DNA of 64,000 nucleotides. Source: Jatrophihabitans sp. GTDB taxonomy: Bacteria > Actinomycetota > Actinomycetes > Mycobacteriales > Jatrophihabitantaceae. A program made the position numbers and the translations under genes. Positions 13,067 to 63,462 of the stretch are shown here, piece after piece. Below the pieces are notes generated by a model that was not told the origin of the DNA, ran no database searches, and worked only from the letters and a program-made list of their open reading frames with translations. Within the stretch, counting starts at the first letter, position 1. The number at the start of each line of letters is the position of its first letter. Location of the stretch: positions 40 through 64,039 of the forward strand of contig DATAKO010000049.1 in assembly GCA_036261575.1 (NCBI GenBank), read 5' to 3'.

Positions 13067-13840
13067 GTGATGTCGAACGATGGCGTCGCCGACCGCGCTG
13101 CGAAATCCGATCCGCCGCCCACCCTCGAAGCTGCACGTGCAGTTGACCCCGGCACCCCGGAACCATCGGTCGCGCGGGTGCTCAGCCGGCTGGCCCGGCG
13201 GCTGCAGGGCGAGCAGGATCAGGATGCGTTGCTGGGCGCCATCGCCGACGCTGCCGTGTTCAACGTCAGCGGCGCCGAGTGGGCCGGCATCAGCGTGCGA
13301 TCCGACCGGGCCGGCTTGATCACCCGGGCTGCCACCGACCCGGTGGTGCCGGCAATCGATGAGGCACAGCTGACGCTGGGCGAGGGGCCCGGGCTCGACG
13401 CGGCTCGCCGGCGACACACCATCCGCAGCGCCGACCTGGTTGCTGAGCGCCGCTGGCCCCGCTTCGCCCCGCAGGCGCTCGGGCTCGGCGTGCGCTCGCT
13501 GCTGTCGCTGGAGTTGTTCGGCGCGCGCCGCCGCTTCGGCGCGCTGAACGTCTACAGCGGGCAGCCGAACGCCTTCGACGAGCCGGCGGAAGCGGCGGCA
13601 TTGCTGCTGGCAGCGCATGCTGCGCTGGCCATCGGCGCCCAGCAGACCCGCTCGACGCTCAGCCACGCCCTGGATATCCGCGACGTCGTCGGGCAGGCCA
13701 AAGGCATCCTGATGGAGCGCTACCGGATCGGCAACCAGGAGGCCTTCGAGCTGCTGTCGACCTCGTCGCAGAACACCAACCGCCGGCTGGTCGAGGTGGC
13801 CGACGAGCTGATCCGTACCGGGCAACTGCCGCTGCCCTGA
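13067..13840 (+). CDS. GAF and ANTAR domain protein
   Basis: GEGPGLDAA GAF motif, ALDIRDVVGQAKGILMERY...AFELLSTSSQNTNRRLVEVA ANTAR. Confidence 0.92.
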   Translation: MMSNDGVADRAAKSDPPPTLEAARAVDPGTPEPSVARVLSRLARRLQGEQDQDALLGAIADAAVFNVSGAEWAGISVRSDRAGLITRAATDPVVPAIDEAQLTLGEGPGLDAARRRHTIRSADLVAERRWPRFAPQALGLGVRSLLSLELFGARRRFGALNVYSGQPNAFDEPAEAAALLLAAHAALAIGAQQTRSTLSHALDIRDVVGQAKGILMERYRIGNQEAFELLSTSSQNTNRRLVEVADELIRTGQLPLP

Positions 13841-13976
13841 GTCGACCACCTGCCGTGGCCGAGGGGTGCCGGGGAAGGCCGGCGTGGAGGGTGGCCGGTG
13901 GCGCGTCGAACCGGGGCGGTAATTTACCTGCACCGGTCGGATGACAGCGCCCGATCGACGACGTCAAGGAAACAGG

Positions 13977-14294
13977 ATGGAACTTCTCGTTGAGGTCGAC
14001 GACTCCTCGGCCGACGAATCCGTGATCACGCTGACCGGCTCGCTGGACCTGGCCAGTCGTGGACAGCTGATCGAGGCGGCCGGTGCCGCCATCGATGCCG
14101 GCCGCGGCCTGGTGCTGGATCTGGCCGAGCTGACCTTTCTCGACTCCACCGGCATCGGCGCGCTGGTCGAGGCGGCCGGCATGGCAGCCGATGCCGAGCA
14201 GCGATTCCGGCTACGCAACCCGTCAGCCCGGGTCGCGCGGGTGCTGGAGCTGACCGGCATGTCAGAGCAGTGGCAGATCGAAACCACCGGCTGA
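13977..14294 (+). CDS. STAS domain anti-sigma factor antagonist
   Basis: GSLDL, LVLDLAELTFLDSTGI (phospho-Ser motif), RVLELTG. Confidence 0.9.
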   Translation: MELLVEVDDSSADESVITLTGSLDLASRGQLIEAAGAAIDAGRGLVLDLAELTFLDSTGIGALVEAAGMAADAEQRFRLRNPSARVARVLELTGMSEQWQIETTG

Positions 14295-14327
14295 ATCGCG
14301 CGCGAACCGCAGGAAAGGACGCCGGCT

Positions 14328-14714
14328 GTGTCGGACTTCATCACCATCGAGCTGCCCCCGGAACCGTCGGCGGTGATCCTGGCCAGGCAGTTCGTGGCCG
14401 AGCACGCCGGGGACCTGCCGGAGGACCGCAAGTTCGACGCCGAGTTGCTGGTGTCGGAACTGGTCGCGAACGCGGTCCAGCACGGCCAGCCCGACATCCG
14501 GCTGTCGGTCAGCCCGGACCCGCCCGGCATCTGGGTGCAGGTCAGCGATGAGGGCGACTACCTGCCCCAGCTGCCCGACCGGGCACCGGATTCGCGCCAG
14601 CCCAACGGCCGCGGGCTGCGGCTGGTGGATGCGATCGCGGACTCCTGGGGGGTCAAGCCCGCCGACTCGCCACCCGGCAAGACGGTCTGGTTCGAGATCC
14701 GCATCAGCAGCTGA
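14328..14714 (+). CDS. Anti-sigma factor / serine kinase (RsbW-like HATPase)
   Basis: ELLVSELVANAVQHG N-box, VSDEG, GRGLRLVDA, GKTVWFE; GAAAGGA RBS. Confidence 0.9.
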   Translation: MSDFITIELPPEPSAVILARQFVAEHAGDLPEDRKFDAELLVSELVANAVQHGQPDIRLSVSPDPPGIWVQVSDEGDYLPQLPDRAPDSRQPNGRGLRLVDAIADSWGVKPADSPPGKTVWFEIRISS

Positions 14715-45742: not shown

Positions 45743-46599
45743 GCGTGCCGACGGCAGTCGCGGTCAACCTGATCGGAACGGTGGAGCATCCGGAATTCGG
45801 CGGCTCCCCCTTCGCCGTCGCGATGGACGGCAGCCCCTACCTGCCGGTCGGCGATGCCGGCATCGTGCTCGGGGTGCAGCTGGGGGACCTGGTTTTCGGC
45901 CTGGAGGGTGATCACGTCGCACCGGGCGCCACCCTGACCCACCCGGACCAGGCGGCCCGGCACGCGCTGACCTCGTTCGCCTGCCTGGGCAACGAGGTCC
46001 GGGTCCGCACGGGCGGGGCTGCCGGTGCCACCGGCCGGGTGCTGGGCAAGCGAGGTGAGGCCGGCCGGGTCATCGTGGTGTTCGAGCCGGACGTGCTGGC
46101 CACCCTGGCTCCCGGCGATGCGATCCAGGTCCGCGGCTTCGGCCAGGGCAGCAGCTGCCCGCCGGAGCTGGCCGCGGCCGGCGCGGTCGTGCTGAACTGC
46201 GACCCGGCGATGCTGGACCGGCTGCAGGTGCGGCTGGGGGAGCGGGCCTCGTTCCCGGTGCGGGCGGTGGTGCCCTCGAAGTTGGTCGGCAACGGCCTGG
46301 GCCGGCCGGCGCAGCAGTGGGACCTGGACCTGGCCGTGACGGTCGGCAACGCCGAGCGCTGGTCGATGGCGCAGCTGCGCTTCGGTGACCTGATCGCGAT
46401 CACCGACCTGGACGTGCGGCACAACGCCGGCTACCGGCACGGCTGGACCACGGTGGGCGTGACGGTGCACGGCGCGAGCCGGTTGCCCGGCCACGGGCCC
46501 GGCGTGATGCCGGTGTTCTGCGGGCCGTCCGAGCTGGTCGACGTGCGCCCCGATGCCGCGGATCATCGCGGTGTCACGTCCGATCGCCTATGGTCCTAG
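45739..46599 (+). CDS. DUF4438 (TM1086-like) protein, copy 2
   Basis: GDHVAPG, ACLGN, GFGQG, LRFGDLIAITD, GHGPG; collinear with copy 1. Confidence 0.78.
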   Translation: MSVPTAVAVNLIGTVEHPEFGGSPFAVAMDGSPYLPVGDAGIVLGVQLGDLVFGLEGDHVAPGATLTHPDQAARHALTSFACLGNEVRVRTGGAAGATGRVLGKRGEAGRVIVVFEPDVLATLAPGDAIQVRGFGQGSSCPPELAAAGAVVLNCDPAMLDRLQVRLGERASFPVRAVVPSKLVGNGLGRPAQQWDLDLAVTVGNAERWSMAQLRFGDLIAITDLDVRHNAGYRHGWTTVGVTVHGASRLPGHGPGVMPVFCGPSELVDVRPDAADHRGVTSDRLWS

Positions 46600-47258
46600 A
46601 CGTGTCCGAAGCACACCTGCCACCGGGAACGCCGGATACCGCAGTGCTGCACATGTCACTGCCGGAGTCGGTGCACCAGATCCTGCGCCGGCGCATCCTC
46701 AACAACGAGCTGCGGGCCGGCACCCGGCTGGTCGAAGCCAACCTGGCGCTCGAACTGGGCGTCAGCCGCTCCACGCTGCGGCTGGCACTGCGGCAGCTGG
46801 CACAGGAGGGCCTGGTTGACGTCGCGCCGCGGCGGCACAGCACGGTCACCCGGATGTCGTATGAGGAGGTTCGCGACGCCTGTTACGCCCGGTACGTGCT
46901 GGAGGTGGGCGCGCTGCGCGCCATCGCCGACGACCAGCTGGAAGCGCTGGCCAGCGCGCTCGACGCCGTCGCGGCGCGCATGACGGAAGCCGCCAAGGCC
47001 AGCGATCTGGCGCTGCTGGTCGACCTGGACACCGAGTTCCACGGCTGCATCGTGCACGCGTCCGGCAAACGCCGGCTGGCCGGGCTGTGGTCGACCCTGG
47101 ACGCCCAGATGGGTGCGTTGATGCGTTCGTCGATGGAGGATCAGGCGATCGACCTGGCCGAGGCCGGCCGGCGGCACCAGCAGTTCGCCGACGTGGTCCG
47201 CTCCGGCGACCGGGACCGGATCGCGCACGAGCTCTACCACCACTACCTGCGCGACTGA
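46590..47258 (+). CDS. GntR family regulator (FCD domain)
   Basis: LVEANLALELGVSRSTLRLAL HTH; LDTEFH FCD motif. Confidence 0.92.
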   Translation: MVLDVSEAHLPPGTPDTAVLHMSLPESVHQILRRRILNNELRAGTRLVEANLALELGVSRSTLRLALRQLAQEGLVDVAPRRHSTVTRMSYEEVRDACYARYVLEVGALRAIADDQLEALASALDAVAARMTEAAKASDLALLVDLDTEFHGCIVHASGKRRLAGLWSTLDAQMGALMRSSMEDQAIDLAEAGRRHQQFADVVRSGDRDRIAHELYHHYLRD

Positions 47259-50684: not shown

Positions 50685-51026
50685 ATGGCATGGGTCTACC
50701 TGGCGCTGGCCATTGCCGCCGAGGTCGGCGGAACCGTCCAGCTGCGTGCGCTGAGCACCACGAGCCACCGGTTCGCACTGATCGTGGCGGTCACCGTCGC
50801 CTACGCGGCATCGTTCTTCTTCATGACGTTTGCCCTACGCCATATCGGTGTCGGTGCGGTCTACGCGATCTGGTCTGGGGTCGGCACCTTCTTCGTCGCG
50901 CTGCTGGGCCAGCTGCTCTACGGCGACCGGATCCGCTGGATCGGGGCGCTCGGCATGGTGCTCATCGTCGGTGGTGTGATGCTGGTGGTGGCCGGTGGCA
51001 GCGCGCACGGCCGGTCGGGTGGCTGA
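50685..51026 (+). CDS. SMR/DMT small multidrug efflux protein
   Basis: [17 protein letters not shown] (membrane Glu), VYAIWSGVG, four TM helices; GAGGAG RBS. Confidence 0.9.
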
Positions 51027-51038
51027 TCTCGACTTGTG

Positions 51039-51054
51039 ACTCTGCTAGTTGTAG
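51039..51054. promoter_or_regulatory. Candidate operator, copy 1 of ACTCTGYTARYWGWAG
   Basis: ACTCTGCTAGTTGTAG, overlapping a TAGCGT -10-like hexamer 8 nt before ATG 51066. Confidence 0.55.
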
Positions 51055-51065
51055 CGTCACCGGCT

Positions 51066-52631
51066 ATGACGTCAGATCGGATCTGGGCGCAATTACCGGG
51101 TGATCGAGGCCCGGTGACCAATCTCGCGGCCATCGTGCGCGCCCGTGGCCAGGTCACTCCGGAACTGCCCGCGATCATCGAACCCGACCGCACCACGACC
51201 TTCGCCCAGCTGGACCGGCGTTCCAGCCAGGTCGCTCAGGCGCTGCTGTCCGCGGGTGTGGGACCGGGCGATCGGGTGGCCTACCTGGGCGTGAACGCGC
51301 CGTCCTTCCTGGAGGTGTTCTACGGCACCGCCAAGCTGGGCGCGATCGCCACCGCGCTCAACCACCGGCTCGCGCCGGGGGAGATCCGCCAGATCCTGGC
51401 CGATGCCGAGCCGACCGTGCTGGTGCAGGGTGCCGGCGAGCCGCCGCTGCTCGACCCGCCGGCCGGCCTGCGGGTGGTGCGGGCCGAGGACTACGAGCAC
51501 TGGCTGGCGCCGCATCCGGCCGACGATCCGGGCCGGGAACCCGGCCCGGACGAGCCGGCGGTCATCCTCTACACCTCAGGTACCACCGGGCTGCCCAAGG
51601 GCATAGTGCTCACCGGCGGCTCCATCGGCCAGGCGCTGGCGACGATGCACTGGGACATGGAGCTGGACGAGACGTCGGTCGCCATGGCGCCGATTCCCTA
51701 CTTCCATGTCTCCGGCCTGGGGCTGGCCATGGTCGCCAACCTCAACGGCGCGGCGCTGCTGCTGGAGCTGGCCACCGAACCGACCGCGTTGATGAACCTG
51801 CTGGTGAGCCGGCGCGTCTCGCACGCGGCGGTGGTGCCGACCCTGATCCAGCGGCTGGTGCAGCTGCCGGCGGCAGCAACAGCGGACTGGTCGGCGCTGA
51901 AGTACCTGGTCTATGGCTCGGCGCCGATGCCGCTGCCGATCATCAAGGCGGCTACCGAGCTGTTCGGCTGCAAGTTCATCCAGAGCTACGGCCTGACCGA
52001 ATCCACCGGCGGGGTAACGGTGTTGTGGCCCGAGGACCACCTGCCGGAGCCGGGCCGGGAACACCAGCTGCGGTCGGTGGGGCGGCCGATGCCCGGCGTG
52101 CAGCTGCGAGTGGTCGATCCGGACACGCTGCAGCCGCTGCCGCCGGGCCGGCGTGGCGAGGTGCTGATCGGCGGCGGTCACCTGATGCAGGGGTACTGGC
52201 GCCGGCCGGCCGAGACCGCCGCCGTGCTGACCGAGGACGGCTGGCTGCGCACCGGCGATGGCGGCAGCATGGACGAGCAGGGCTTGCTGTACCTGCACGA
52301 CCGGCTCAAGGACATGATCGTCACCGGCGGCGAGAACGTGTTTCCGGCCGAAGTGGAATCAGTGCTGACCGGACATCCCGCGGTCGCCGAGGTGGCGGTG
52401 ATCGGCATTCCGTCCCAGCAATGGGGGGAATCCCCCTATGCCATCGTGGTGCTCGCGCCGGGGGCCACTGCCGATGCGGCCGAGCTCATCGGCTACGCCC
52501 GGGACCGGCTGGCTCACTACAAGTGTCCGGTCGGGGTCTCCTTCGTGCAGGCGTTGCCCCGCAATGCCAGCGGAAAGCTGCTCAAGCGGGTGTTGCGCGA
52601 GCAGTTCGGCGAGCCGGCCGGGGTCAGGTGA
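51066..52631 (+). CDS. Long-chain acyl-CoA synthetase (AMP-binding)
   Basis: YTSGTTGLPKG, YGLTE, WLRTGDGG, DRLKDMIVTGGENV, GKLLK. Confidence 0.93.
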   Translation: MTSDRIWAQLPGDRGPVTNLAAIVRARGQVTPELPAIIEPDRTTTFAQLDRRSSQVAQALLSAGVGPGDRVAYLGVNAPSFLEVFYGTAKLGAIATALNHRLAPGEIRQILADAEPTVLVQGAGEPPLLDPPAGLRVVRAEDYEHWLAPHPADDPGREPGPDEPAVILYTSGTTGLPKGIVLTGGSIGQALATMHWDMELDETSVAMAPIPYFHVSGLGLAMVANLNGAALLLELATEPTALMNLLVSRRVSHAAVVPTLIQRLVQLPAAATADWSALKYLVYGSAPMPLPIIKAATELFGCKFIQSYGLTESTGGVTVLWPEDHLPEPGREHQLRSVGRPMPGVQLRVVDPDTLQPLPPGRRGEVLIGGGHLMQGYWRRPAETAAVLTEDGWLRTGDGGSMDEQGLLYLHDRLKDMIVTGGENVFPAEVESVLTGHPAVAEVAVIGIPSQQWGESPYAIVVLAPGATADAAELIGYARDRLAHYKCPVGVSFVQALPRNASGKLLKRVLREQFGEPAGVR

Positions 52632-53328
52632 GCCGGAACCGCACCCCGGACAGCTCGAAGGTGTGCCCGGCCCGGCTCCGGTCGGTGGCCGGCAGGCTCA
52701 CCCCGACCAGGCCGGTCCGGCCGTCCCGCTCGGCGATGAAGTGCACGCTGCGACCGGACAGGTCCAGGCTCTGACCGTCCGGCTGCACCGGCACGTCCAG
52801 CACCGCTGCCCACCGCGCGCAACAACCGACCGGGTCGGCGACCGCGAGCTCGATCGCGGTGATATCACCGACCACGTCGGTGCACGCGTTGTCGAAGATG
52901 CGTGGTGCCATGTGCCAGCTGCTTGCCGGCCGGATCTGGTCGAACTCCACCAGGGTGCCGAAATCGCGCGGGTGCCACTGGGTGATGGTGTGGCCTTCGT
53001 AGGGCGTCTGGAAGACCGGTTTCAGGTCAAGCCGTCCGGCCCGTGCCTGCAGCGCCTCTATGTCCTCGACCTGAACCACCACCATGTAACCGAGGTTCCC
53101 GCGCTTGGCGACCAGCCGCCCCGGCATGGTGTCGGGCCCGAGCGGGGCACTGAATTCGAGAAACGTGTCCCGAATGGTCAACACCTCATGGATGAAACCG
53201 AGCGCGGCCATCCCCTCGGCATCCTGCACGCCGCGGCCCAGCCCCAGCTCCTGCCGGGCGCGCGCCAGCGTGTCCGGCAGGTCGGCCGCCAGGAAGACCA
53301 GCTGCCGGACCGCCGGTAGCGCGGTCAT
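52624..53328 (-). CDS. VOC/glyoxalase-like hypothetical protein
   Basis: RQLVF...FLEFSAP...GYMVVVQV...WHPRDFGTLVEFDQ; two beta-alpha-beta-beta-beta-like repeats; ATGA overlap with upstream gene. Confidence 0.6.
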   Translation of the reverse strand: MTALPAVRQLVFLAADLPDTLARARQELGLGRGVQDAEGMAALGFIHEVLTIRDTFLEFSAPLGPDTMPGRLVAKRGNLGYMVVVQVEDIEALQARAGRLDLKPVFQTPYEGHTITQWHPRDFGTLVEFDQIRPASSWHMAPRIFDNACTDVVGDITAIELAVADPVGCCARWAAVLDVPVQPDGQSLDLSGRSVHFIAERDGRTGLVGVSLPATDRSRAGHTFELSGVRFRLT

Positions 53329-54407
53329 CGAGCGGCTCCGGTCAGCCGCGGCTGCCACGGCAGCAGGTCCGGCAGCTCGAAGATGCCGGGTTCTGCCTGC
53401 ACCACGAACGGGATCGCCGCGATCACGGGACCGGCGGTGGCGTACTGCTCGGCATGGGTACGCCGGCCGGCCGGCTGGTCCGGCGGTTCGGTGACGTCGA
53501 TCGCCAGCGCCACGCCGGGCGTACCGGTGATCGAGATGGTCCACAGGTGTGGGTTCTCGAAACCCGGCAGCTGCGCATCCATGATCCAGTTGATCGACAG
53601 CGTGAGGAACCTGCGGCCGGCCACGACGGCATGCCAGCGCCAGTTGGTGCCCGCCACCTGGCCGGGCTCGATCACCCCGCTGGCCAGCTCCAGCCGCCGG
53701 GTTGCCGTAAACACCTGGTGATCCGGTTCGATGCGCTCCAAGGTGAGGCCGAGCCGGTCGATGGCGAAGTGGATTGCCTCGGCGAACAGTGTGTCGTACA
53801 GCTGGGCGAACGCCCCGGTGAGCAGTTCCGGCGCGGCAGGGTCCTTGCCCATGCCCATCACGTCGAACACGAATGCCGGGTCCGGCATGGTGGAGGCATC
53901 CACCACCTCGCGGACCGCGATCGAGTCGACCCGCAGGCACATTCCGGTGGCGGTCAGCGCGAGCCGCTCCAGCACGAAGCCCGGATTGATGCCGGCCCCG
54001 AACAGCGTGACGCCGCCCCGTTCGGCCGCCTCGCGGAACCTCGCCTCGCGCTCCGGCCCGTGCGCACGGGGGTAGTGATGCCCCAGCGTGGTGATCACGT
54101 TCTTGCCCGATTCGAGCAGCGCGATGATGTCATCGTCCTGTGATTCGTAGGGAATCCCGATTCGCGCGGTGTGCAGCACCACATCGGCGTCCAGCGCCAG
54201 GATCTCGTCCCGGCTCCGGGTGGCACGCACGCCGGTCGGCTCGACCCGCGCCACCGTCCCGGCGTCCTGGCCTGCCTTGCGCTCGGAGTAGACGTACAAC
54301 CCGACCAGGTCCAGGTCTGGATGGGCGAGCACTGCCCGCAGGGTGGTCTTACCGATCGCCCCGGTAGCCCACTGCACCACCCGCCACGGCCGGCCCGGCG
54401 CGCTCAC
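53325..54407 (-). CDS. Dihydrodipicolinate-reductase-like / 2,4-diaminopentanoate-dehydrogenase-like oxidoreductase
   Basis: VVQWATGAIG, KAGQDAG, LESGKNVIT, GAGINPGF. Confidence 0.8.
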   Translation of the reverse strand: MSAPGRPWRVVQWATGAIGKTTLRAVLAHPDLDLVGLYVYSERKAGQDAGTVARVEPTGVRATRSRDEILALDADVVLHTARIGIPYESQDDDIIALLESGKNVITTLGHHYPRAHGPEREARFREAAERGGVTLFGAGINPGFVLERLALTATGMCLRVDSIAVREVVDASTMPDPAFVFDVMGMGKDPAAPELLTGAFAQLYDTLFAEAIHFAIDRLGLTLERIEPDHQVFTATRRLELASGVIEPGQVAGTNWRWHAVVAGRRFLTLSINWIMDAQLPGFENPHLWTISITGTPGVALAIDVTEPPDQPAGRRTHAEQYATAGPVIAAIPFVVQAEPGIFELPDLLPWQPRLTGAAR

Positions 54408-55624
54408 GCCTCGGCCAGCCGCTCGATGACTACGGCGGTGCCCAGGCCCAGTGCCGCCGGGATGGTCAGCAGGCCGTACCGGCCGCCGGTGCGCTCGAGT
54501 GCCGCCAGCGCGGTGGCCAGCAGGATGCCGCCGCTGGCGCCGAGCGGGTGTCCCATCGACACCGCGCCGCCGTCGACGTTGAGAATCTCGTCGGCGAAGC
54601 CGAACTCGCGCTGCACCAGCAGCGGGCTGACCGCGAACGACTCGTTCACCTCGACGATGTCGAGCTCGGCCGGGGTCAGCTTGGCGCGGTCCAGTGCGCG
54701 CCGGACGGCAGGGATGGTGGCGGTGAGCAGCGGCGAGCGAACCGCGGCGGTCGCTGTCGCCAGGATCCGCGCGCGTGGCGGACGGTGCACTACCTGCTCC
54801 GCGGCGCGGCTGCCGATCAACGCGAGCGAGGCGCCGTCGACGATCTGCGGCGCCACCGCCGCGGTGTGCACCGGCGGAAACTCGCCGAGCTCGGGCAACC
54901 GGCGACCGACCCGGGCATGCGCGCTCGCGTCGTCCGGGAACAGCAGCGGCATCGCCGCGAAGTCGGCCGCGGTCAGCTGTGGCCGGATGGCGTCGTCGCG
55001 CTCCAGCAGCGGTTGGCCGTCCGCGCCGAGCACCGGTATCACGCTGCCCGAGAAGTGCCCCTGCGCCCAGGCCCGGGCCGCACGCTGGTGTGAGCGCAGG
55101 CCGTAGGCATCGAGCTCGGCCCGCGTCATCCCGGCGGTCGCCGCGGTGGCGTCGGCGGAGACCCCGATGGTCACGAATCCAGTGCGTTCACCGAGCTCTT
55201 CGTCGAAGCCGATGCCTGGCCGGTCCGACATCATCGGCGCTCGCGACATCGACTCCACGCCACCGGCCGCCACCAGCTCGGCGGTGCCCGCGCTCACCTG
55301 TGCCGCCGCGGCGGCCAGCGCATCCAGTCCGGAACAGCACAGCCGGCCGACCACGGTGCCGGACAACTCGTCCGGCCAGCCCGCCCAGATCACCGACGCG
55401 CGCGCCACATTGCCCGCTTGCTCGCCGGTGATCGTGCTGACCCCGAGAATCACCTCTTCGACCGTCGTCCCGTCGTGCCCGGCCGTCAGGTCGTTGCGCT
55501 CGTCGAGGGCGTGCATCAGCTGCCCGACCAGCTCGTGCGGCGGTACCGCGGCCAGCGCACCACCGTCCCGGCGCACCCGGCCGCGCGGCGTGCGCACCAC
55601 GTCGTAGACGTAGGCGTCCAGCAT
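54404..55624 (-). CDS. Thiolase-family protein lacking the C-terminal catalytic Cys
   Basis: VRTPRG, RLCCSG, GGVESMS, NESF, GHPLGASG, but TIPAALG in place of CxGGG; AAGGAG RBS. Confidence 0.85.
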   Translation of the reverse strand: MLDAYVYDVVRTPRGRVRRDGGALAAVPPHELVGQLMHALDERNDLTAGHDGTTVEEVILGVSTITGEQAGNVARASVIWAGWPDELSGTVVGRLCCSGLDALAAAAAQVSAGTAELVAAGGVESMSRAPMMSDRPGIGFDEELGERTGFVTIGVSADATAATAGMTRAELDAYGLRSHQRAARAWAQGHFSGSVIPVLGADGQPLLERDDAIRPQLTAADFAAMPLLFPDDASAHARVGRRLPELGEFPPVHTAAVAPQIVDGASLALIGSRAAEQVVHRPPRARILATATAAVRSPLLTATIPAVRRALDRAKLTPAELDIVEVNESFAVSPLLVQREFGFADEILNVDGGAVSMGHPLGASGGILLATALAALERTGGRYGLLTIPAALGLGTAVVIERLAEA

Positions 55625-55850
55625 GGCGTTCTCCTTCGGGGCTTCGTGGCCCTCGCTCACCGGCAGCCGGCGCCACCGGTGAACCTCGTCGCCGCGGGCA
55701 TGATGCGGCCGTCGAGCGGGGCCTTGATACTTCAGTAATAGCAGTGACTCGGTCACAGAGGAAGTGCCAATTCGTCACCGGCGTGCCGGACGGGCCGAGT
55801 CGGGCTTGTGAGCGGCGGGCAGCGTGGTGCATAGTGCCTGTCACGCAGTT

Positions 55851-55866
55851 ACTCTGCTAACTGAAG
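55851..55866. promoter_or_regulatory. Candidate operator, copy 2 of ACTCTGYTARYWGWAG
   Basis: ACTCTGCTAACTGAAG in divergent gap; related inverted copy CTTCAGTAATAGCAGTGAC at 55730-55748. Confidence 0.55.
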
Positions 55867-55946
55867 TTTAGCTCTGCTGGCCGCAGCGCTCGCCCACCTC
55901 GTCAATCCAGGGTGATCGCTGATGCGGGCCGGTCGGAAAGGGACGG

Positions 55947-56897
55947 ATGCCGCCGATGGATCTCGACGCGCTGCGGGTACCGGTCATTGCCGCTCCGATG
56001 TTCCTCATCTCGGGCCCGGAGCTGGTGATCGAGGCGTCCCGGGCAGGCGCGATCGGAGCCTTCCCGGCGCCGAACTGCCGCACGGTCGACGAACTCGACG
56101 AGTGGATGCACACCATCGAGCAGGCCCTGACCGACGCCGACGGTCACACGCTGCCCTGGGCGGTCAACCTGGTGACGCACCGCACCAACGAGCGGCTGCC
56201 GGCTGATCTCGAAGTGGTGGCCGCGCACCGGCCGCCGATCGTCATCACCGCACTGGGCTCGCCGAAACCGGTGATGGAGACGGTGAAGGGTTACGGCGGG
56301 TTGGTGCTGGCCGACGTCGTCAGCGTGGCCCTGGCACGCAAGGCCGCCGCCGCGGAGGTGGACGGGTTGGCCTGCGTGTCAGCTGGCGCGGGCGGCCACA
56401 CCGGGCACCTGTCGCCCTTTGCTTTCATCAGCGCGGTGCGGGAATTCTTCGACGGCATCATCGCGGTGGGCGGTGGCATCAGCGACGGGGCCGGCGTTGC
56501 CGGCGCCATCGTGGCCGGCGCTGACCTGGTTTACGTGGGTACCCGGTTTCTGGCCACCACCGAGAGCATGGCGGTGCCGGAATACAAGCAGATGGTGGTC
56601 GAACACGGACTCGACGACCTGATCGTCAGCTCCGCGGTGACCGGTACCGATGCATCCTGGCTGAAGCCGAGCCTGATCGCCAACGGCTTCGATCCCGATG
56701 ACATGGGTGCCGCCCACGAGCGCAGCTACAACAGCGGTAACGCCGCCGGTCACGCCAGGTGGAAGGAGATCTGGGCGGCCGGCCAGGGATTGCAGACAAT
56801 TCACGCGGTGGACCCGACCCGCACCGTGGTGCAACGGCTCGAGGCGGAGTACCGCCACGCACTGCGGCGTCGGCTGCCTGCCGACGTCACCGGCTGA
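55947..56897 (+). CDS. Nitronate monooxygenase / FabK-like FMN oxidoreductase
   Basis: PVIAAPMF, AGAGGHTG, GGGI, YVGTRFLAT, WAAGQG. Confidence 0.88.
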   Translation: MPPMDLDALRVPVIAAPMFLISGPELVIEASRAGAIGAFPAPNCRTVDELDEWMHTIEQALTDADGHTLPWAVNLVTHRTNERLPADLEVVAAHRPPIVITALGSPKPVMETVKGYGGLVLADVVSVALARKAAAAEVDGLACVSAGAGGHTGHLSPFAFISAVREFFDGIIAVGGGISDGAGVAGAIVAGADLVYVGTRFLATTESMAVPEYKQMVVEHGLDDLIVSSAVTGTDASWLKPSLIANGFDPDDMGAAHERSYNSGNAAGHARWKEIWAAGQGLQTIHAVDPTRTVVQRLEAEYRHALRRRLPADVTG

Positions 56898-56927
56898 ACA
56901 CTTACCCACTGCCCGAAAGGAAAATCC

Positions 56928-57323
56928 ATGACCGCGGCGGAGCCCCGTCACCCGCACGTACAGCTGCTCGATCGGATCATCGCGGCGGCCGAAGCCGGCG
57001 ATGCCAGCGATCTGGTGAACATCTACGCCGAGGATGCGGTGATCTGGCACAACCACGACGGCAAGCAGACCTCAGTCGCCCAGAATTCGAAGCTGCTCGA
57101 ATCGATGGCGAGCTGGGTGGCCGACCGCCGCTACACCGACCGGCGCATCCACGTCTTCGACGGCGGTGTGGTGCAGCAGCACGTGCTGCGCGGCACGCAC
57201 CGGGCCAGCGGTGAGGAGCTGGCGATGGATGCCTGCGTCGTCGTGCTGGTCAATGAACAGGGCCGGATCACCCGGCTGGACGAGTACATCGACTCCCGCC
57301 AAGCTGCTCGCTTCCGGCCCTGA
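56928..57323 (+). CDS. NTF2/SnoaL-like protein
   Basis: YAEDAVIWHNHDG, VVQQHVL, ITRLDEYID; GAAAGGA RBS. Confidence 0.85.
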   Translation: MTAAEPRHPHVQLLDRIIAAAEAGDASDLVNIYAEDAVIWHNHDGKQTSVAQNSKLLESMASWVADRRYTDRRIHVFDGGVVQQHVLRGTHRASGEELAMDACVVVLVNEQGRITRLDEYIDSRQAARFRP

Positions 57324-57368
57324 CCGCAGGGCGGCGGCACGCGGCTCGGCAAAGCCTGCGCGGCGCGC

Positions 57369-58583
57369 TCAGGTCAGCCGTTCGATGATCATCGCCATGC
57401 CCTGACCGCCGCCCACGCACATCGTCGCCAGACCGTACCGGCCCTGCCGCTCGGCCAGGCTGTGCAGCAACGTCACCAGCATGCGCGCGCCGGTCATCCC
57501 GAACGGGTGTCCCAGTGCGATCGCGCCTCCGTTGACGTTCAACCGGTCCGGGTCGATGCCCAGGGCACGCGCGCTGCCGATCACCTGGACGGCGAATGCC
57601 TCGTTGATCTCGACCAGGTCCAGCTCGGCGATGCTGAGACCGGCCCGGGCCAGGGCCGCCCTACTGGCCGCCACCGGGCCCAGCCCCATGATCTCGGGGC
57701 TGAGCGCTGAAACACCGGTAGCCACGATCCGCGCCAGCGGCCGGACACCGAGCTCGGCCGCCCGGCTGTCACTGAGCACCAGCAGCGCGGCCGCGCCGTC
57801 GTTCAGCGGGCAGCAGTTGCCCGCGGTCACCGTGCCGTCCGGGCGGAACGCCGGCGGCAGCGCGGCCAGGTCGGCCAGCGTCGTGGCCGGTCGCGGGCTG
57901 TCGTCCCGGTGCACCAGCACGCCGTCGGCGCCCGGCACCGGTGTGATCTCGGCATCGAAGAAGCGGCGCGCCAGCGCCGCAGCGGTGCGCTGCTGACTGG
58001 ACAGCGCGTACTCGTCCTGCTCCGCCCGGCTGATGCCCAGCAAAGACGCCACGTTCTCCGCTGTCCGGCCCATTCCGAGAAAGAGCTGCGGCACCCGGCC
58101 GGTGCTGCGCGGGTCCCGCCAGCGATCGGTACCGGTCTCGCCGGCGGCGAGGGCTTCGGCCTCGACGAACATCGGATGCCGGGTGTCGGGAAGTAGCCCC
58201 GGAAAGGCCAGCGCGTGCTGGCTCACGCTCTCCACGCCCACTGACAGCACGGCATCGGCCTCACCGGCCCTGATCGCGTGCGCGGCCATCCGGGTGCTCT
58301 GCAGGCTGGAGGCGCAGTAGCGGGTGACGGTCGTGCCGGGAACGGTGTCCCAACCGAGCTCGACGGCTAGGTTGCGGGCGATGTTGTAATCGGTCTCGCC
58401 GTTGGGCTGGGTGTAGCCGGCGATGATGTCCTCGATGCTGAGCGGATCCAGCTGGGGCACCTGGGCGAGTGTCGCCTCGACGACGCTGCGGGCGAGGTCG
58501 TCCGGCCGTACGGCCGCCAGCGATCCCTTGCCGGCACGGCCGATCGGGGATCGCGTGGCCGCGACGACGACCGCCTCAGCCAT
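57369..58583 (-). CDS. Acetyl-CoA C-acyltransferase (thiolase)
   Basis: RSPIGRA, RYCASS, NEAF, GHPFGMTG, TMCVGGGQG (complete Cys-His-Cys set). Confidence 0.93.
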   Translation of the reverse strand: MAEAVVVAATRSPIGRAGKGSLAAVRPDDLARSVVEATLAQVPQLDPLSIEDIIAGYTQPNGETDYNIARNLAVELGWDTVPGTTVTRYCASSLQSTRMAAHAIRAGEADAVLSVGVESVSQHALAFPGLLPDTRHPMFVEAEALAAGETGTDRWRDPRSTGRVPQLFLGMGRTAENVASLLGISRAEQDEYALSSQQRTAAALARRFFDAEITPVPGADGVLVHRDDSPRPATTLADLAALPPAFRPDGTVTAGNCCPLNDGAAALLVLSDSRAAELGVRPLARIVATGVSALSPEIMGLGPVAASRAALARAGLSIAELDLVEINEAFAVQVIGSARALGIDPDRLNVNGGAIALGHPFGMTGARMLVTLLHSLAERQGRYGLATMCVGGGQGMAMIIERLT

Positions 58584-60192
58584 GGTGCCGTGCACCGGTA
58601 CGGGTGCGGTCGTGCACACCGTCAGCCGCAGCGATCGAGCGTGAGATCAACGCCTTCTGCACCCGCAGGGTAGGCGTCTTGGGCAGCTCGTCGACGAAGT
58701 GCAGGTAGCGCGGCACCATGAACCGGGGTAACCGCGGATCGAGGTAGTCCCAGAGCTGCTCGGCGGCAAGCCCGGCCCCAGGTTCGCGGACGACCACCAG
58801 CTTGATCTCGTCCTCCACGTCATCGGCAGGCACCGCAATGGCGGCACACTCGCGCACCGCGGGGTGCCTGATCGCTTCGGCCTCGACCTCGTAGGAGGAC
58901 ACGTTCTCGCCGCGGCGGCGGATTGTGTCCTTGAGCCGGTCCACGAAGAAATACCTGCCGTGCTCGTCGCAACGAAACGCGTCACCGGTGTGGAACCAGC
59001 CGTTGCGCCAGGCCGCCACGGTGGCCTCGGGCATGTTCAGGTAACCGGCGTTGAGCGTCCACGGCACTTCGGTTCGCAGTACCAGCTCACCCACCTCGCC
59101 CGGCGCGACGTCATAGTCGTGCTCGTCGACGATTCGCAGCTGGTAAAAGGGGTATCCCTCGCGTGCCCACCCGCAGTTGGGTACGTCACCGGCCTGCCAG
59201 TGTGGCAGCCAGGTAGGCACGCTGATCTCGGTCATGTTGTAGGCGCTCCACACCCGGGTACCGAAGCGCTCGTTGAACTCGTCCACCGCCGGCACCACCG
59301 GCGCCATCAGGACGTTGGTCAGGCTCGTCCCCGCGTCGCCGGGCGCCGGTGGGGCCGACAGCAGGAACTGCGCCATCGCCCCGACCAGGCCGGTGTCGGT
59401 TGCCCGGAACCGGCGCACCTCATCCCAGAAGGCCTTTCCGCTGAAGGTGTGACGCATGACAGCAACCCCGCCGAGCATTGCCATCGCCGCAGCGGCGCCC
59501 TTTGCCTGTACGTGGTTGGGCGGCCCGTTGACGTAGATGACCTTGTCCGGGCTGGGACCGGACTCGATGCCGGCCACGGTCAGCAGCTGGCCGGCGTGCA
59601 ACTGGCCCCACGGCATCAGCACGCCCTTGGATGGTCCGGTGGTTCCCGAGGTGTAGATGACCGAGGCGATGTCCCACATCTGCGGCTGTGCATAGGCACG
59701 GCCCGGCTCGTCCGGGACCGCGGCCAATAACTCCGCTGCCGAGTGGCCGGTCAGCCCGCCGACTGGCTCGGAACCACCCTGCTGGCGCAGCACGGTGTGC
59801 AACCGCGGCACCTCACCGGCCACCGCCGCCACCGCGGGGAGGGCAGCGTCGTCGGCGATGAGCAGCCGTGCCTCGGGCAGCCGCAGCTGATGTGCCAGCA
59901 CGGAGCCTTGCAGGGCCACGTTGATCGGCACCTCGACCGCGCCGGCCCACGCGATGCCGAACCAGACCGCATAGTTCTCCGCGGTGTTGTGCAGCATCGT
60001 GGCCACCATGTCGCCGGGCTGCACTCCCAACCGCATGAGCACCCGCGCCCAGCGCAGCGCTCGCTCGTGCAGCTGCCGGTAAGTGAAACTGCCGCCCTCG
60101 ACGTCCAGCAGGTACGGCCGGTCCCCGTCGTGCTCGGCACGCTCGCGCACCAGCAGCGGCAGCACGACCTCCTCGGGCCGGTAGCCGGTCAC
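58576..60192 (-). CDS. CaiC-like acyl-CoA ligase (AMP-binding)
   Basis: YTSGTTGPSKG, YNMTE, WFHTGDAF, DRLKDTIRRRGENVSS; GTGA overlap. Confidence 0.9.
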   Translation of the reverse strand: MTGYRPEEVVLPLLVRERAEHDGDRPYLLDVEGGSFTYRQLHERALRWARVLMRLGVQPGDMVATMLHNTAENYAVWFGIAWAGAVEVPINVALQGSVLAHQLRLPEARLLIADDAALPAVAAVAGEVPRLHTVLRQQGGSEPVGGLTGHSAAELLAAVPDEPGRAYAQPQMWDIASVIYTSGTTGPSKGVLMPWGQLHAGQLLTVAGIESGPSPDKVIYVNGPPNHVQAKGAAAAMAMLGGVAVMRHTFSGKAFWDEVRRFRATDTGLVGAMAQFLLSAPPAPGDAGTSLTNVLMAPVVPAVDEFNERFGTRVWSAYNMTEISVPTWLPHWQAGDVPNCGWAREGYPFYQLRIVDEHDYDVAPGEVGELVLRTEVPWTLNAGYLNMPEATVAAWRNGWFHTGDAFRCDEHGRYFFVDRLKDTIRRRGENVSSYEVEAEAIRHPAVRECAAIAVPADDVEDEIKLVVVREPGAGLAAEQLWDYLDPRLPRFMVPRYLHFVDELPKTPTLRVQKALISRSIAAADGVHDRTRTGARHHG

Positions 60193-61730
60193 GGTCGCAG
60201 TCCCCAACTGACCGGCCCGGGCGCTCGCAGCGGGGCCGCCAGGTTGGCGAACTCGCACAGCAGCGCGCGGGTGTCGCGCGGATCGATGAGTTGCTCGATG
60301 TCGAATGCCTCGGCCGTCTTGATCACTCCCTGCGTCTGCTCCACCTTGTTCAGGATGTCGCGGAGCAATCCGTCCGGATCCGGACTGGCCGCGAGCTCGG
60401 CACGGTAGGCCGCCTCGATGCCACCTTTGGCCGGGATCGAGCCCCAGTCGGCCGAAGGCCACGCGTAGCGGTATTGCAGTCGCGCGTAGTTGGCATGCCC
60501 TGCCCCGCCGACGCCGAAGACCTTGCGCAGGATGATCGAGCACCACGGCACCCGTGCCTGATACACCGCCGACAGTGCGCGTACGCCGTGCCGGATCACC
60601 GCTGCCCGCTCGGCCGCGAGACCGATCAGGAAGCCGGGGTTGTCCACCAGGTGCACCACCGGCAGGTGAAAGGTGTCGGCGAGGTCGATGAACCGCACGG
60701 CCTTGTCCGCGGCGTCGGCACCCCAGCTCCCGCCGTAGATGTAGGGATCGCTGGCGAGCAGGGCTACCGGCCAGCCGTCCAGCCGGGCGAACCCGGTCAC
60801 CACCGCCTTGCCGAAGCCGGCCCCGATCTCGAAGAACGACCCGGTATCGACGACAGATTCGATGATGGGACGGATCCGGTAGACCTTGCGGCGATCGGCG
60901 GGCACGGCGCCGATCAGCCAGTCATCGGCTCGCGCCGGATCGTCGTCCGGTTCGGTCCGTTCGGCCAGCTCGTGTACCGAGGAAGGCAGGTAGGACAGGA
61001 AGCGCCGGGCGCTGGCGAAGGCGGCAGGCTCGTCGTCGACCACGGCATCGACGGTGCCGTTGCGGCCGTGCACCTCGGCGCCGCCGAGCTCCTCCTTGGT
61101 GCGGTGCTCACCGACCGCCGCCACCAGCGGGGGCCCGGCGGTGAAGATCTGGCTGACACCGCGCACCATCACCGCATAGTGGCTGGCCGCCACCCGGGCG
61201 GCGCCGAAGCCGGCGCACGGTCCGAGTGCCAGCGACACCACCGGCACCGTGGCCAGGTTGGCCACGGAGAACTCCCAGCCGGGCAGCGCCGGCACGTAGC
61301 TGCGGCCGAGCTCGACCAGGCTGCGGATGCTGCCGCCGCCACCGGTTCCGTCGATCAGCCGGATGATCGGCAGCCGAAGCTCGTTGGCCATCTGCTCGGA
61401 GTAGATCTGCTTGCGAATGTTGAAGGCGTCCGAGGCCCCGCCGCGGACTGTGAAATCGTCGGCACCGACGACGACCGGCCGGCCGTCGATCCGGCCGCGG
61501 CCGGTGAGGAAGTTGGTTGGCAGGAACCCCGGCTCACCGCCCGGCTGGTGCCGCCCGGACAGCGTGCCGAGCTCGCGGAAGCTGCCCTCGTCCAGCAGCG
61601 CGGCGATTCGCTGGCGGACGTCGAGCTTGCCACTGTCGTGTTGGCGCGCCACCTTGGCGCTGCCACCCATGCCGCGTGCCTGCCGCTCCCGGTCGCGGAT
61701 CTCGTCGATCGAGGGTTGCCAATCGGTCAT
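60189..61730 (-). CDS. Acyl-CoA carboxylase carboxyltransferase subunit
   Basis: RQRIAALLDEGSF, DDFTVRGG, EELGG, VDNPGF, GGIEAAY, IDPRDTR. Confidence 0.92.
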   Translation of the reverse strand: MTDWQPSIDEIRDRERQARGMGGSAKVARQHDSGKLDVRQRIAALLDEGSFRELGTLSGRHQPGGEPGFLPTNFLTGRGRIDGRPVVVGADDFTVRGGASDAFNIRKQIYSEQMANELRLPIIRLIDGTGGGGSIRSLVELGRSYVPALPGWEFSVANLATVPVVSLALGPCAGFGAARVAASHYAVMVRGVSQIFTAGPPLVAAVGEHRTKEELGGAEVHGRNGTVDAVVDDEPAAFASARRFLSYLPSSVHELAERTEPDDDPARADDWLIGAVPADRRKVYRIRPIIESVVDTGSFFEIGAGFGKAVVTGFARLDGWPVALLASDPYIYGGSWGADAADKAVRFIDLADTFHLPVVHLVDNPGFLIGLAAERAAVIRHGVRALSAVYQARVPWCSIILRKVFGVGGAGHANYARLQYRYAWPSADWGSIPAKGGIEAAYRAELAASPDPDGLLRDILNKVEQTQGVIKTAEAFDIEQLIDPRDTRALLCEFANLAAPLRAPGPVSWGLRP

Positions 61731-63085
61731 GCCGGCCGTCCGATCGGGCGCAGCCGGCCCACCAGACCGGTGTCGTAGCCACCGTGCTGGAAGGCGGGGT
61801 CCGCCAGCAGCTCGGCGAAGAAAGGCAGGTTGGTCCTCGGCCCCTCGATCCGGAACTCCGCGACCGCGGCCGCAGCCCGGCGCAGGGCAGCCGGACGATC
61901 CTCGGCCCACACGCACAGCTTGGCCAGCAACGGATCATAGAAGCGTGTGACCGTGTCGCCGGCCCGGTAACCGGCATCAACCCGGATGCCCTCTCCTGCC
62001 GGCTGCCGCCAGCGCTCGATCAGGCCCGGGCTCGGTAGGAAAGTCAGCGGATCCTCGGCACAGACCCGCAGCTGCAGCGCGTGCCCGCACGGGGCCGGTG
62101 GCTGCCGCGGATCGAAACCCGGCCGGTCCCCGGCCGCGACGCGCAGCTGCTCGGCCACCAGGTCCAGGCCGGTGACCAGCTCTGTCACCGTGTGCTCGAC
62201 CTGCAGCCGGGTGTTCATCTCCAGGAAGACGAACTGCCCGGTGGCGGGATCGAGCAGCCATTCCACCGTGCCGGCCCCGCGGTAGCCGACCGCGCGGCCG
62301 GCCGAGATCGAGGCTGCGGCCAGCGCGGTGCGGGTGCGCTCAGCGAGCGCGGTCGCCGGGGTCTCCTCTGCCAGCTTCTGGTGTCGGCGTTGCACGCTGC
62401 AATCACGCTCGCCGAGCGCGACCACCTGCCCGTCCGCCAGTCCGAAGATCTGCACTTCGATGTGCCTGGCCCGCTCGATGAAGCGTTCCAGGTAGAGCTC
62501 GCCGCGGCCGAAGGCGCGTTCGGCGCCGCTGCGGGTGCGCTCGAAGGCAGATACCAGTTGCTGCTCATCGCGGGCCAATGCCATGCCGATGCCGCCGCCA
62601 CCGGCGGCTGCCTTGAGCATGACCGGGTAGCCCAGCCGCTCGGCCGCGGCGATCGCGGCCGAGCGGTCCGGCAGCGCGCTCTCGCTGCCGGCCGAGACCG
62701 GCAGGCCCGCACCGGCCATCCTCAGTCGCGCCTGCAGCTTGTCGCCCATGGCGGCGATGCAGTTCGGGTCCGGTCCGATGAAGGTGAGGCCCGCATCGAT
62801 GACCCGCTGCGCGAATTCCGCGTTCTCGGAGAGGAATCCGTAACCGGGGTGCACGGCTTCAGCGCCGCTGGCGCGAACCGCCGCGAGCATCGCGTCCATG
62901 TCCAGGTATGCCTGTCCCGGTGCCGCGCCCGGCAGTGCGACCGCGTCGTCGGCCGCGTCGACGTGGGCGGCACCGGCGTCGGCGCCGGAGTGCACCGCGA
63001 TACCGCGGACGCCGAGCTGGCGCAGCGTCCGCAGCACCCGGACCGCGATCTCACCGCGATTGGCGACCAGAACTGACCGGAACAT
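61727..63085 (-). CDS. Biotin carboxylase subunit
   Basis: VLVANRGEIA, HPGYGFLSEN, GGGGIGM, RDCSVQRRHQK, EMNTRLQVEH; no fused BCCP. Confidence 0.95.
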   Translation of the reverse strand: MFRSVLVANRGEIAVRVLRTLRQLGVRGIAVHSGADAGAAHVDAADDAVALPGAAPGQAYLDMDAMLAAVRASGAEAVHPGYGFLSENAEFAQRVIDAGLTFIGPDPNCIAAMGDKLQARLRMAGAGLPVSAGSESALPDRSAAIAAAERLGYPVMLKAAAGGGGIGMALARDEQQLVSAFERTRSGAERAFGRGELYLERFIERARHIEVQIFGLADGQVVALGERDCSVQRRHQKLAEETPATALAERTRTALAAASISAGRAVGYRGAGTVEWLLDPATGQFVFLEMNTRLQVEHTVTELVTGLDLVAEQLRVAAGDRPGFDPRQPPAPCGHALQLRVCAEDPLTFLPSPGLIERWRQPAGEGIRVDAGYRAGDTVTRFYDPLLAKLCVWAEDRPAALRRAAAAVAEFRIEGPRTNLPFFAELLADPAFQHGGYDTGLVGRLRPIGRPA

Positions 63086-63119
63086 GGGCTCGACTCCGCG
63101 GCGTCGGCAGGCGCCACTA

Positions 63120-63135
63120 ACTCTGTTAACAGTAG
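63120..63135. promoter_or_regulatory. Candidate operator, copy 3 of ACTCTGYTARYWGWAG
   Basis: ACTCTGTTAACAGTAG containing the perfect palindrome CTGTTAACAG (63123-63132) in the BC/BCCP divergent gap. Confidence 0.6.
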
Positions 63136-63237
63136 TATCGTGCGTGCAGTTGAAGTTAGAGCACGCGTTGCCCGCACGCAAGAATCTCCTGCGGCACAGC
63201 TGCATTCGAACCATCTGCGACCTGGAGGCGACCGCGG

Positions 63238-63462
63238 ATGGCGGAGCTGAACGTGCACAGTGACATCGCCGCATCGATCTGGCAGGTGCTCGTCGAGCCT
63301 GATTCGCAGGTCGGCGAGGGCGATGAGGTGATGATCCTGGAGTCGATGAAGATGGAGGTTCCGGTGACCGCTCCGCGGGCTGGCCGGGTGCTTCAGGTGC
63401 TGGTTGTGGCCGGCCAGTCGGTCGAGGAGGGTGAGCTGCTGATCCGGCTCGATATCAGCTAG
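63238..63462 (+). CDS. Stand-alone biotin carboxyl carrier protein
   Basis: ILESMKME biotinylation motif, 74 aa; GAGG RBS. Confidence 0.92.
   Translation: MAELNVHSDIAASIWQVLVEPDSQVGEGDEVMILESMKMEVPVTAPRAGRVLQVLVVAGQSVEEGELLIRLDIS

Follow-up and report, generated by a model that had tools for sequence, protein, structure and literature searches.

The 64,000-nt stretch of Jatrophihabitans sp. DNA analysed here, referred to as the window, carries an acyl-CoA cluster made up of five transcription units. The acyl-CoA ligase gene fadD1 (51066-52631, plus strand, Pfam AMP-binding) forms the first of these, and is followed on the minus strand by thiolase-1 (thl1), a DAP_DH-like dehydrogenase and a VOC-like protein (52624-55624), whose genes overlap by 4 nt. 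An NMO-family flavoenzyme and a SnoaL-like protein are encoded on the plus strand (55956-57323), while biotin carboxylase, carboxyltransferase, a further acyl-CoA ligase (fadD2) and thiolase-2 (thl2) make up a minus-strand unit with overlapping stop and start codons (57369-63085), beyond which lies the plus-strand gene for a biotin carboxyl carrier protein (BCCP) of 74 aa (63238-63462, PF00364). A preliminary description of this DNA had pointed to a shared 16-mer in the promoter regions of the cluster, at 51039, 55851 and 63120, and all three copies are indeed found there, each of the outer ones being identical to the middle copy at 13 of 16 positions. Their setting is also AT-richer intergenic DNA, as had been described, with 58-62% GC in the gaps that contain them compared to ~70% elsewhere.

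Collecting 21 sites, including those from the other loci described below, we found that the conserved site is longer than the 16-mer. The 3-4 bases directly 5' of it (AGTn) are likewise conserved, which extends the site to an asymmetric 21-mer with the consensus AGTnACTCTGyTArYTGTAGT, where the information content is unbroken over positions -3 to 17 and the conserved positions include T5, T8 and A15. The palindrome CTGTTAACAG, which had been taken for the core of the motif, is confined to copy 3 among the collected sites. Since T occupies position 12 in 18 of the 21 and A does so in two, the motif has to be called asymmetric, and the only symmetry that remains is the outer dyad ACT...AGT. Reading the motif as two direct repeats of 7 or 9 bp was also tried and discarded, the support for it being weak (5-8 of 9-11 positions).

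Site 1 (51035-51055, plus strand, TGTGACTCTGCTAGTTGTAGC) ends 10 nt 5' of the fadD1 ATG (51066) and occupies the 17-nt spacer and the first 4 nt of the second hexamer in a promoter-like pattern, TCGACT-N17-TAGCGT. The -10-like hexamer that had been noted at this copy thus exists, as TAGCGT at 51052-57, but its promoter character is a pattern match only. Site 2 (55847-55867, plus strand, AGTTACTCTGCTAACTGAAGT) has the start of the NMO gene (55956) 88 nt downstream. Site 3 (63116-63136, plus strand, ACTAACTCTGTTAACAGTAGT) lies inside the gap between the divergent biotin carboxylase and BCCP genes, 30 nt from the start of the former (63085) and 101 nt from that of the latter (63238). An inverted relative of the motif, placed earlier at 55730-55748, is present on the minus strand at 55729-55749 (AGTCACTGCTATTACTGAAGT), where it faces thiolase-1; its arms, AGTnACT and ACTGAAGT, fit the consensus and its centre deviates. 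Treating this variant as a 17-mer with a 2-bp insertion was discarded, as the 21-nt frame aligns ungapped.

Scored with a position matrix, the three copies reach 24-30 bits and the rest of the 64 kb stays at or below 12 bits. In a Jatrophihabitans MAG (L004, NZ_JBQCEE01), whose carboxyltransferase is 81% identical to that of the window, three sites were observed versus 0.03 expected, and a syntenic soil contig (L084), with proteins 63-90% identical, has four. All the sites of these two relatives lie at orthologous or cluster promoter gaps, in flanking DNA that has diverged. Sites 2 and 3 are kept in both, and around site 1 a block of 35 nt (51025-51059) is identical in L084 despite a different upstream gene. 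The variant site, which scores at background level (12.4 bits) with a matrix from other lineages, is a 25/25-identical block in L004 among diverged flanks, adjoining the thl1 ATG there. A second conserved block, 3' of site 3 (63149-63164, plus strand, GTTGAAGTTAGAGCAC), is kept as GTTGAAGCTAG in L004 and as GACGAAGCTAGAGCAC in L084, and may be a promoter element. The distant carboxyltransferase loci (L005-L083), proteobacterial ones included, were without this version of the motif, the best score among them being 18.7 bits.

One homologous cluster, L087, encodes within it a tandem HxlR protein. Using homology to this protein alone, independent of the motif, we gathered regulator loci, and the homologues fetched with their context came from Mycolicibacterium, Pimelobacter, Nocardia, Gordonia, Streptomyces and a soil contig. 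Cultivable carriers of a tandem HxlR include Nocardia sp. CNY236, Streptomyces sp. 3214.6 and Pimelobacter simplex. Genes adjoining the fetched regulators include those for AMP-binding ligase, thiolases, DapB/DAP_DH-like, VOC, NMO, SnoaL, DUF1295, MaoC and RPE65 proteins. A forward matrix, trained on the sites of the window and L004 only, found sites of 20-29 bits in the promoter gap of the regulator or in the adjoining one at six of the seven regulator loci; at the seventh, in Gordonia, the site is weak (11.9 bits). Hits of at least 17 bits numbered 7 in the 105 kb of the first five loci versus a single one in the high-GC control of 1.92 Mb (P ~3e-11), a figure that ties the motif to the cluster and does not fully separate out the regulator, because the same enzyme genes accompany the latter in every case. 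Conversely, a reverse matrix of 21 nt, built from the regulator-encoding loci only, gave 32.4 bits for site 2, 30.0 for site 3 and 28.3 for site 1, compared to a maximum of 16.8 bits in the control (1.9 Mb). In Nocardia, a single ligase gene, a site of 28.6 bits and a divergent tandem HxlR gene make up the entire unit. Among the strong sites, 20 of 21 are oriented toward a downstream gene. Its start is listed for 18 of them and lies 9-122 nt away for 17, while for the last, at 317 nt, a pseudogene remnant intervenes. Conservation in the two relatives and recurrence at seven actinobacterial loci support the earlier proposal of an operator uniting at least five transcription units; the motif has the look of an operator by which fadD1, thl1-DAPDH-VOC, NMO-SnoaL, BC-CT-fadD2-thl2 and BCCP are joined into one regulon.

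The tandem HxlR regulator is a single chain of ~290-330 aa with two diverged HxlR modules, where each repeat consists of an HxlR winged helix and then a conserved H-x2-C-x9-C-x2-C knuckle. Pfam HxlR matches both halves, the AlphaFold2 model is confident (pLDDT 88, pTM 0.86), and each modelled half matches solved HxlR-family chains (PA1607, PA1374, HypR, HxlR, YodB and QsrR). Its gene is absent from the 64-kb window (tblastn), from L004 and from L084. More generally, there are no regulator genes by the sites in the window cluster, L004 or L084, or in the 3.8-8.8 kb beyond, which agrees with the earlier remark that this part of the window has none. The preliminary description had further suggested looking for a TetR, GntR or PaaX regulator just past position 64000. 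At the corresponding place, beyond BCCP, the syntenic L084 instead has patatin, enoyl-CoA hydratase, another site and DUF1295, and no regulator of these three families adjoins the sites in the window cluster, L004, L084, L087 or L164-L169; the likely regulator is the single-chain tandem HxlR protein instead. The window does carry a GntR gene (46590-47258), 3.8 kb upstream of site 1, near which there is no match of operator strength, the best being 10.4 bits within its coding sequence. Exact-protein matches sought to extend the window past 64000 were all on short contigs (1-5.5 kb) in two soil runs, and the window itself matched soil-metagenome DNA runs only, with no RNA run found to cover it.

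Considering these findings, we think it likely that the motif serves as operator for a factor coordinating a catabolic acyl-CoA regulon, with a tandem HxlR protein acting in trans as the best candidate. Such a protein could be envisioned as a covalent pseudo-dimer whose two modules would each sit on one arm of the lopsided site. With unlike modules, its site would be non-palindromic and would have a fixed polarity toward the downstream gene, and two unlike DNA-binding modules do fit a site that is asymmetric and spans about two helical turns. Because several sites, at 9-17 nt from start codons, lie within or adjoin core promoters, the outcome of binding would likely be repression, most probably through blocking of RNA polymerase. 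The HxlR family also includes activators, e.g. HxlR and HypR, so that it is the position of the sites that suggests repression here. Release of the regulator from the DNA could be brought about by a metabolite of the pathway. In this lineage, where the regulator is not beside its targets, it would act in trans from another locus; we infer that it is encoded in this genome, outside the window, and that it would bind the 21-mer. We also lean towards the view that single-chain tandem HxlR proteins represent an undescribed class of one-component regulator, which would read a polar 21-bp operator as covalent pseudo-dimers, serve a conserved multi-operon pathway of actinobacteria and, in the present case, work purely in trans. 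A full-text literature search found no papers on the tandem HxlR family, and a PDB sequence search found no structure of a double-module HxlR protein.

It can be argued that the operator is real and is read by a regulator of another family (TetR, GntR, PaaX, MarR or similar) encoded elsewhere, the tandem HxlR being a passenger or a second regulator. That the window, L004 and L084 have no regulator beside their sites would allow for this, as would the confounding of the motif-regulator statistics with cluster content. However, we consider it unlikely, since no other regulator family recurs beside the sites in nine loci, the Nocardia unit consists of nothing but the ligase gene, the site (28.6 bits) and the divergent tandem HxlR gene, and homodimeric TetR/GntR proteins normally read sites that are not asymmetric and polar. 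The polarity toward the downstream gene, fixed in 20 of 21 cases, could also be that of a promoter, with the motif being what, for example, an alternative or ECF sigma factor recognises, and in some copies the 3' end is TANNNT-like (TAGTAT, TAGCGT). Conservation, however, is continuous over the 21 nt and does not fall into two boxes with an unconserved 16-17-nt spacer, many copies are missing the final T of a -10 element, and the distance to the start codon varies from 9 to >100 nt. As sigma and anti-sigma genes are also absent from all examined loci, a promoter element appears quite improbable. An E. coli-type sigma-70 scan of the three gaps, which is uninformative for actinobacteria, returned no promoter.

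The sense orientation that the motif nearly always has would likewise be compatible with a role as RNA, either as a 5'-leader element or as an sRNA target. Such a role seems very improbable to us: there was no Rfam match down to E=1, the folding z-scores (-1.0 to +1.1) show nothing unusual, one site serves divergent gene pairs, and the ATG that follows site 1 at a distance of 10 nt has no ribosome-binding site, which suggests that this site is located at the transcript start or upstream of it. As for a chance similarity of AT-richer intergenic stretches, it is true that a count of 3 versus 0.27 is circular, the pattern having been derived from the same three copies. The independent matrix from other genera nevertheless gives 28-32 bits compared to at most 16.8 in 1.9 Mb, and the copies are conserved in two relatives with diverged flanks; chance is refuted, and we give it hardly any weight.

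The tandem HxlR candidate can be compared with several known systems. Each of its modelled halves has the winged-helix fold in common with HypR (YybR, Bacillus subtilis), HxlR, YodB and QsrR, and the single-domain HxlR/DUF24 regulators have operators of ~16-21 bp at or near promoters, often controlling a divergent neighbour, which is the arrangement seen here. The signals of known HxlR/DUF24 members are oxidants, quinones or formaldehyde, and their targets amount to one or two detoxification genes, whereas the candidate regulator would control a multi-operon acyl-CoA catabolic regulon. A similar logic is found in Mce3R of Mycobacterium tuberculosis, a double TetR repressor whose fused modules read a non-palindromic operator before lipid-catabolic genes, although it belongs to the unrelated TetR family and its motif is different. 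The best matches per half in both sequence and fold are the 'long' HxlR proteins PA1607 (PDB 2f2e) and PA1374 (PDB 4gcv) of Pseudomonas aeruginosa, which span ~140 aa of each half, the C-terminal extension included; they differ in being single-module chains of 146-168 aa and are annotated only as putative transcription factors. HypR binds as a homodimer to a symmetric 7-2-7 inverted repeat, GTATCAAAATTGATAC (PMC3351151). In contrast, the regulator described here has two fused, diverged modules that each carry an extra His-Cys3 knuckle, and the site proposed for it lacks the inverted repeat of a classical HxlR/DUF24 homodimer operator, being asymmetric and polar instead.

With the tandem HxlR reading, an anonymous motif becomes a defined regulon with a candidate regulator family. 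The 21-nt operator model is sharp (~30 bits, with almost zero false positives over megabases) and allows the complete regulon to be catalogued for any actinobacterial genome, and such a catalogue is the best available handle on the substrate of the carboxylase/thiolase/NMO pathway. As to what this substrate may be, the association with RPE65 oxygenases in relatives points to acids derived from carotenoids or isoprenoids. A fused, diverged double HxlR protein with a polar site also offers a clean system for studying the evolution of asymmetric recognition in homodimeric winged-helix repressors. The pathway that this reading would place under the regulator comprises acyl-CoA ligases, unusual thiolases, an NMO flavoenzyme and often an RPE65-type carotenoid-cleavage oxygenase, to which the present cluster adds an acyl-CoA carboxylase.

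Five transcription units, delimited by overlapping stop and start codons and served by only three gaps, make up the acyl-CoA cluster of the window. Based on Pfam and NCBIfam, they encode the acyl-CoA ligase fadD1 (51066-52631, plus strand); a VOC-like protein, a DAP_DH-like dehydrogenase and thiolase-1 (52624-55624, minus strand); an NMO-family flavoenzyme (NMO) and a SnoaL-like protein (55956-57323, plus strand); thiolase-2, the ligase fadD2, carboxyltransferase and biotin carboxylase (57369-63085, minus strand); and a biotin carrier protein (BCCP) of 74 aa (63238-63462, plus strand), with a patatin-like gene convergent. The preliminary description had placed a shared 16-mer in these gaps, and we recovered ACTCTGCTAGTTGTAG at 51039, ACTCTGCTAACTGAAG at 55851 and ACTCTGTTAACAGTAG at 63120, each outer copy sharing 13 of its 16 bases with the middle copy, together with the inverted relative on the minus strand at 55729-55749. 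As described there, all copies lie in AT-richer gaps (58-62% GC, compared to ~70% for the window), and gene calls with Pfam/NCBIfam searches placed no regulator gene between 51 and 64 kb. The three copies score 24-30 bits with a 17-nt matrix, while the rest of the 64 kb does not exceed 12 bits. Since the pattern was taken from the same three copies, its count of 3 against 0.27 expected is circular, and we therefore relied on position matrices and other genomes.

Two relatives were drawn from public collections, a Jatrophihabitans MAG contig (L004) via its carboxyltransferase, 81% identical to that of the window, and a 17-kb syntenic soil contig (L084; protein identity 63-90%) via NMO alignment. 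The motif occurs three times in L004 against 0.03 expected: upstream of biotin carboxylase, in the NMO/thiolase-1 gap, and in the enoyl-CoA hydratase/quinone oxidoreductase gap. L084 has four sites, corresponding to site 1 and the NMO and BCCP sites plus a new one before the DUF1295 gene. In alignments of all three gaps, the sites stand out as identical stretches amid diverged DNA; site 1 falls within a 35-nt block identical between window and L084, despite a different upstream gene (SMR-like in the window, dusB in L084). Two further blocks near site 3, GTTGAAGTTAGAGCAC (63149-63164, 13 nt downstream of the site and retained in both relatives) and CGCAAGAATCT (63177-63187, retained in L084), could belong to the BCCP promoter. 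A 13-15-bit matrix match within the carboxyltransferase coding sequence (window 61400-61420, L004 10317-10337, L084 13832-13852) uses the same codons in three genomes and most likely reflects protein-coding conservation rather than a site.

Taken over 21 strong sites, the consensus is AGTnACTCTGyTArYTGTAGT, with conservation unbroken across the 21 nt and 20 of the 21 oriented toward the downstream gene. The palindrome CTGTTAACAG, earlier taken as the core, does not hold, for it requires an A at position 12 that only two of the 21 sites have; dyad character is left only in the outer ACT...AGT. The element at 55729 fits the 21-nt frame ungapped, both arms matching and the centre differing, and scores only 12.4 bits. 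It is probably a weaker variant site, a function suggested by its conservation: in L004 it is identical at 25 of 25 positions and abuts the thiolase-1 ATG.

No regulator was found near the sites in the window (tblastn), L004 or L084. A more distant contig, L087, has an NMO 68% identical to that of the window and two weaker sites; thiolase-1 and a ligase-NMO operon here flank the gene of a 330-aa protein in which the HxlR domain occurs twice. Homology searches (650 and 1,053 matches) gave several hundred actinobacterial relatives of this tandem HxlR protein, of ~260-430 aa, most 285-335. Six homologues were taken with 10-kb flanks, the motif being ignored in choosing: Mycolicibacterium sp. ND9-15 (L164), a Pimelobacter simplex-type genome (L165), Nocardia sp. 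CNY236 (L166), Gordonia alkaliphila (L167), Streptomyces sp. 3214.6 (L168) and a soil contig (L169). Their neighbours resemble the window genes (AMP-binding ligases, thiolases, DapB/DAP_DH-like, VOC, NMO, SnoaL) and include DUF1295, with its counterpart in L084, as well as MaoC and, often, an RPE65-type oxygenase. A forward matrix trained on window and L004 sites only found matches in the promoter gap of the operon containing or facing the regulator: 27.5 bits in L164; 22.0, 19.9 and 17.3 in L165; 28.6 in L166; 27.3, 27.5 and 22.1 in L168; 27.3 in L169; and only 11.9 in L167. The first five regulator loci gave 7 matches of at least 17 bits in 105 kb, against 1 in 1.92 Mb of high-GC control (Poisson P ~3e-11). 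In reverse, a 21-nt matrix built from regulator-encoding loci only scored the window sites at 32.4, 30.0 and 28.3 bits, against a control maximum of 16.8.

These forward and reverse tests, with the conservation in L004 and L084, support the notion of an operator uniting a regulon. The regulator had been guessed to be of the TetR, GntR or PaaX type, which is not supported; at the loci with a regulator beside the sites it is a tandem HxlR gene, and no other regulator recurs. That a different trans-acting protein reads the motif is improbable: the tandem HxlR gene always accompanies the enzyme genes, which would leave room for such a protein, but the minimal Nocardia unit consists of just a ligase, a site and a divergent tandem HxlR gene. 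This unit, and the fact that no other regulator recurs, favour the HxlR protein as the predicted reader. An RNA element is unlikely, given that Rfam gave no match and fold z-scores ranged from -1.0 to +1.1. Recognition as an alternative-sigma promoter is also unlikely, as the motif lacks an unconserved spacer and a sigma gene is present in none of the examined loci.

The distance from site to start codon is 10 nt (window) and 9 nt (L084) for fadD1, 16 nt for the Nocardia ligase, and 17 nt (L004) and 30 nt (window) for biotin carboxylase; some sites are too near the start to lie upstream of the promoter. At fadD1, which looks like a leaderless gene, a conserved block reads TCGACT-N17-TAGCGT, with ATG 8 nt on, and the site occupies the N17 spacer and the start of TAGCGT, in line with the reported overlap with a -10-like hexamer. 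Such positions, at fadD1 and other starts, point to a regulator that would repress through promoter occlusion. A scan with an E. coli-type promoter model, the host being actinobacterial, had no match in the gaps.

The HxlR/DUF24 proteins characterised so far bind palindromes as homodimers, HypR for example a 7-2-7 inverted repeat (PMC3351151), whereas the candidate here has two modules in one chain and an asymmetric, polar site, to which two unlike modules would be suited. Its model is confident (pLDDT 88, pTM 0.86), and each half matches solved single-module chains of the family (PA1374, PA1607, HypR, HxlR, YodB, QsrR). PDB sequence and fold searches returned single-module chains only, with no double-module structure, and a full-text literature search gave no publication about double HxlR proteins. 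After each module of the tandem protein comes an H-x2-C-x9-C-x2-C motif (L087:7035-8027 and homologues, alignments A4 and A5), modelled as a small beta-hairpin knuckle and probably a metal site, which may be structural or sensory; among 48 homologues H130/C133/C143/C146 and H300/C313/C316 are invariant and C303 nearly so. Streptomyces sp. 3214.6 has two tandem paralogues 2.7 kb apart (L168:10001-10954 and 13649-14644), with two adjoining sites (12810-12830 and 12837-12857) upstream of the second. Distant homologues (29-37% identity) adjoin NMO genes in metagenome contigs L090, L091, L094, L097, L105, L124 and L136, where the NMO-upstream DNA carries AGTCACTAGC...-type elements sharing the left arm AGTnACT with the window motif.

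Almost every regulon of the regulator-encoding relatives contains an RPE65-type carotenoid/stilbene cleavage oxygenase beside an SCP-x-like thiolase (L087:2706-4295, L164:8417-9943, L165:20-1537, L167:7032-8561, L168:8459-9979, L169:8463-9980); the window cluster has no RPE65-type gene. This hints that the pathway processes carotenoid- or isoprenoid-like compounds after their cleavage; such a role would be consistent with an acyl-CoA carboxylase being required. Upstream of RPE65 in Mycolicibacterium, an uncalled 1.2-kb stretch (L164:7219-8416) holds the 27.5-bit site, an apparent C-terminal remnant of an SCP-x-like thiolase and, on the opposite strand, an uncalled GAF/ANTAR-like frame. The biotin carboxylase gene is missing from L084 (12624-14437), where the site and then BCCP come immediately after carboxyltransferase, and that of L004 (8862-10004) has a ~72-aa internal deletion (380 vs 452 aa in the window, 61727-63085) removing residues ~161-239, part of the ATP-grasp region. 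In the relatives, this carboxylase subunit seems to be dispensable or in decay, or to come from another source.
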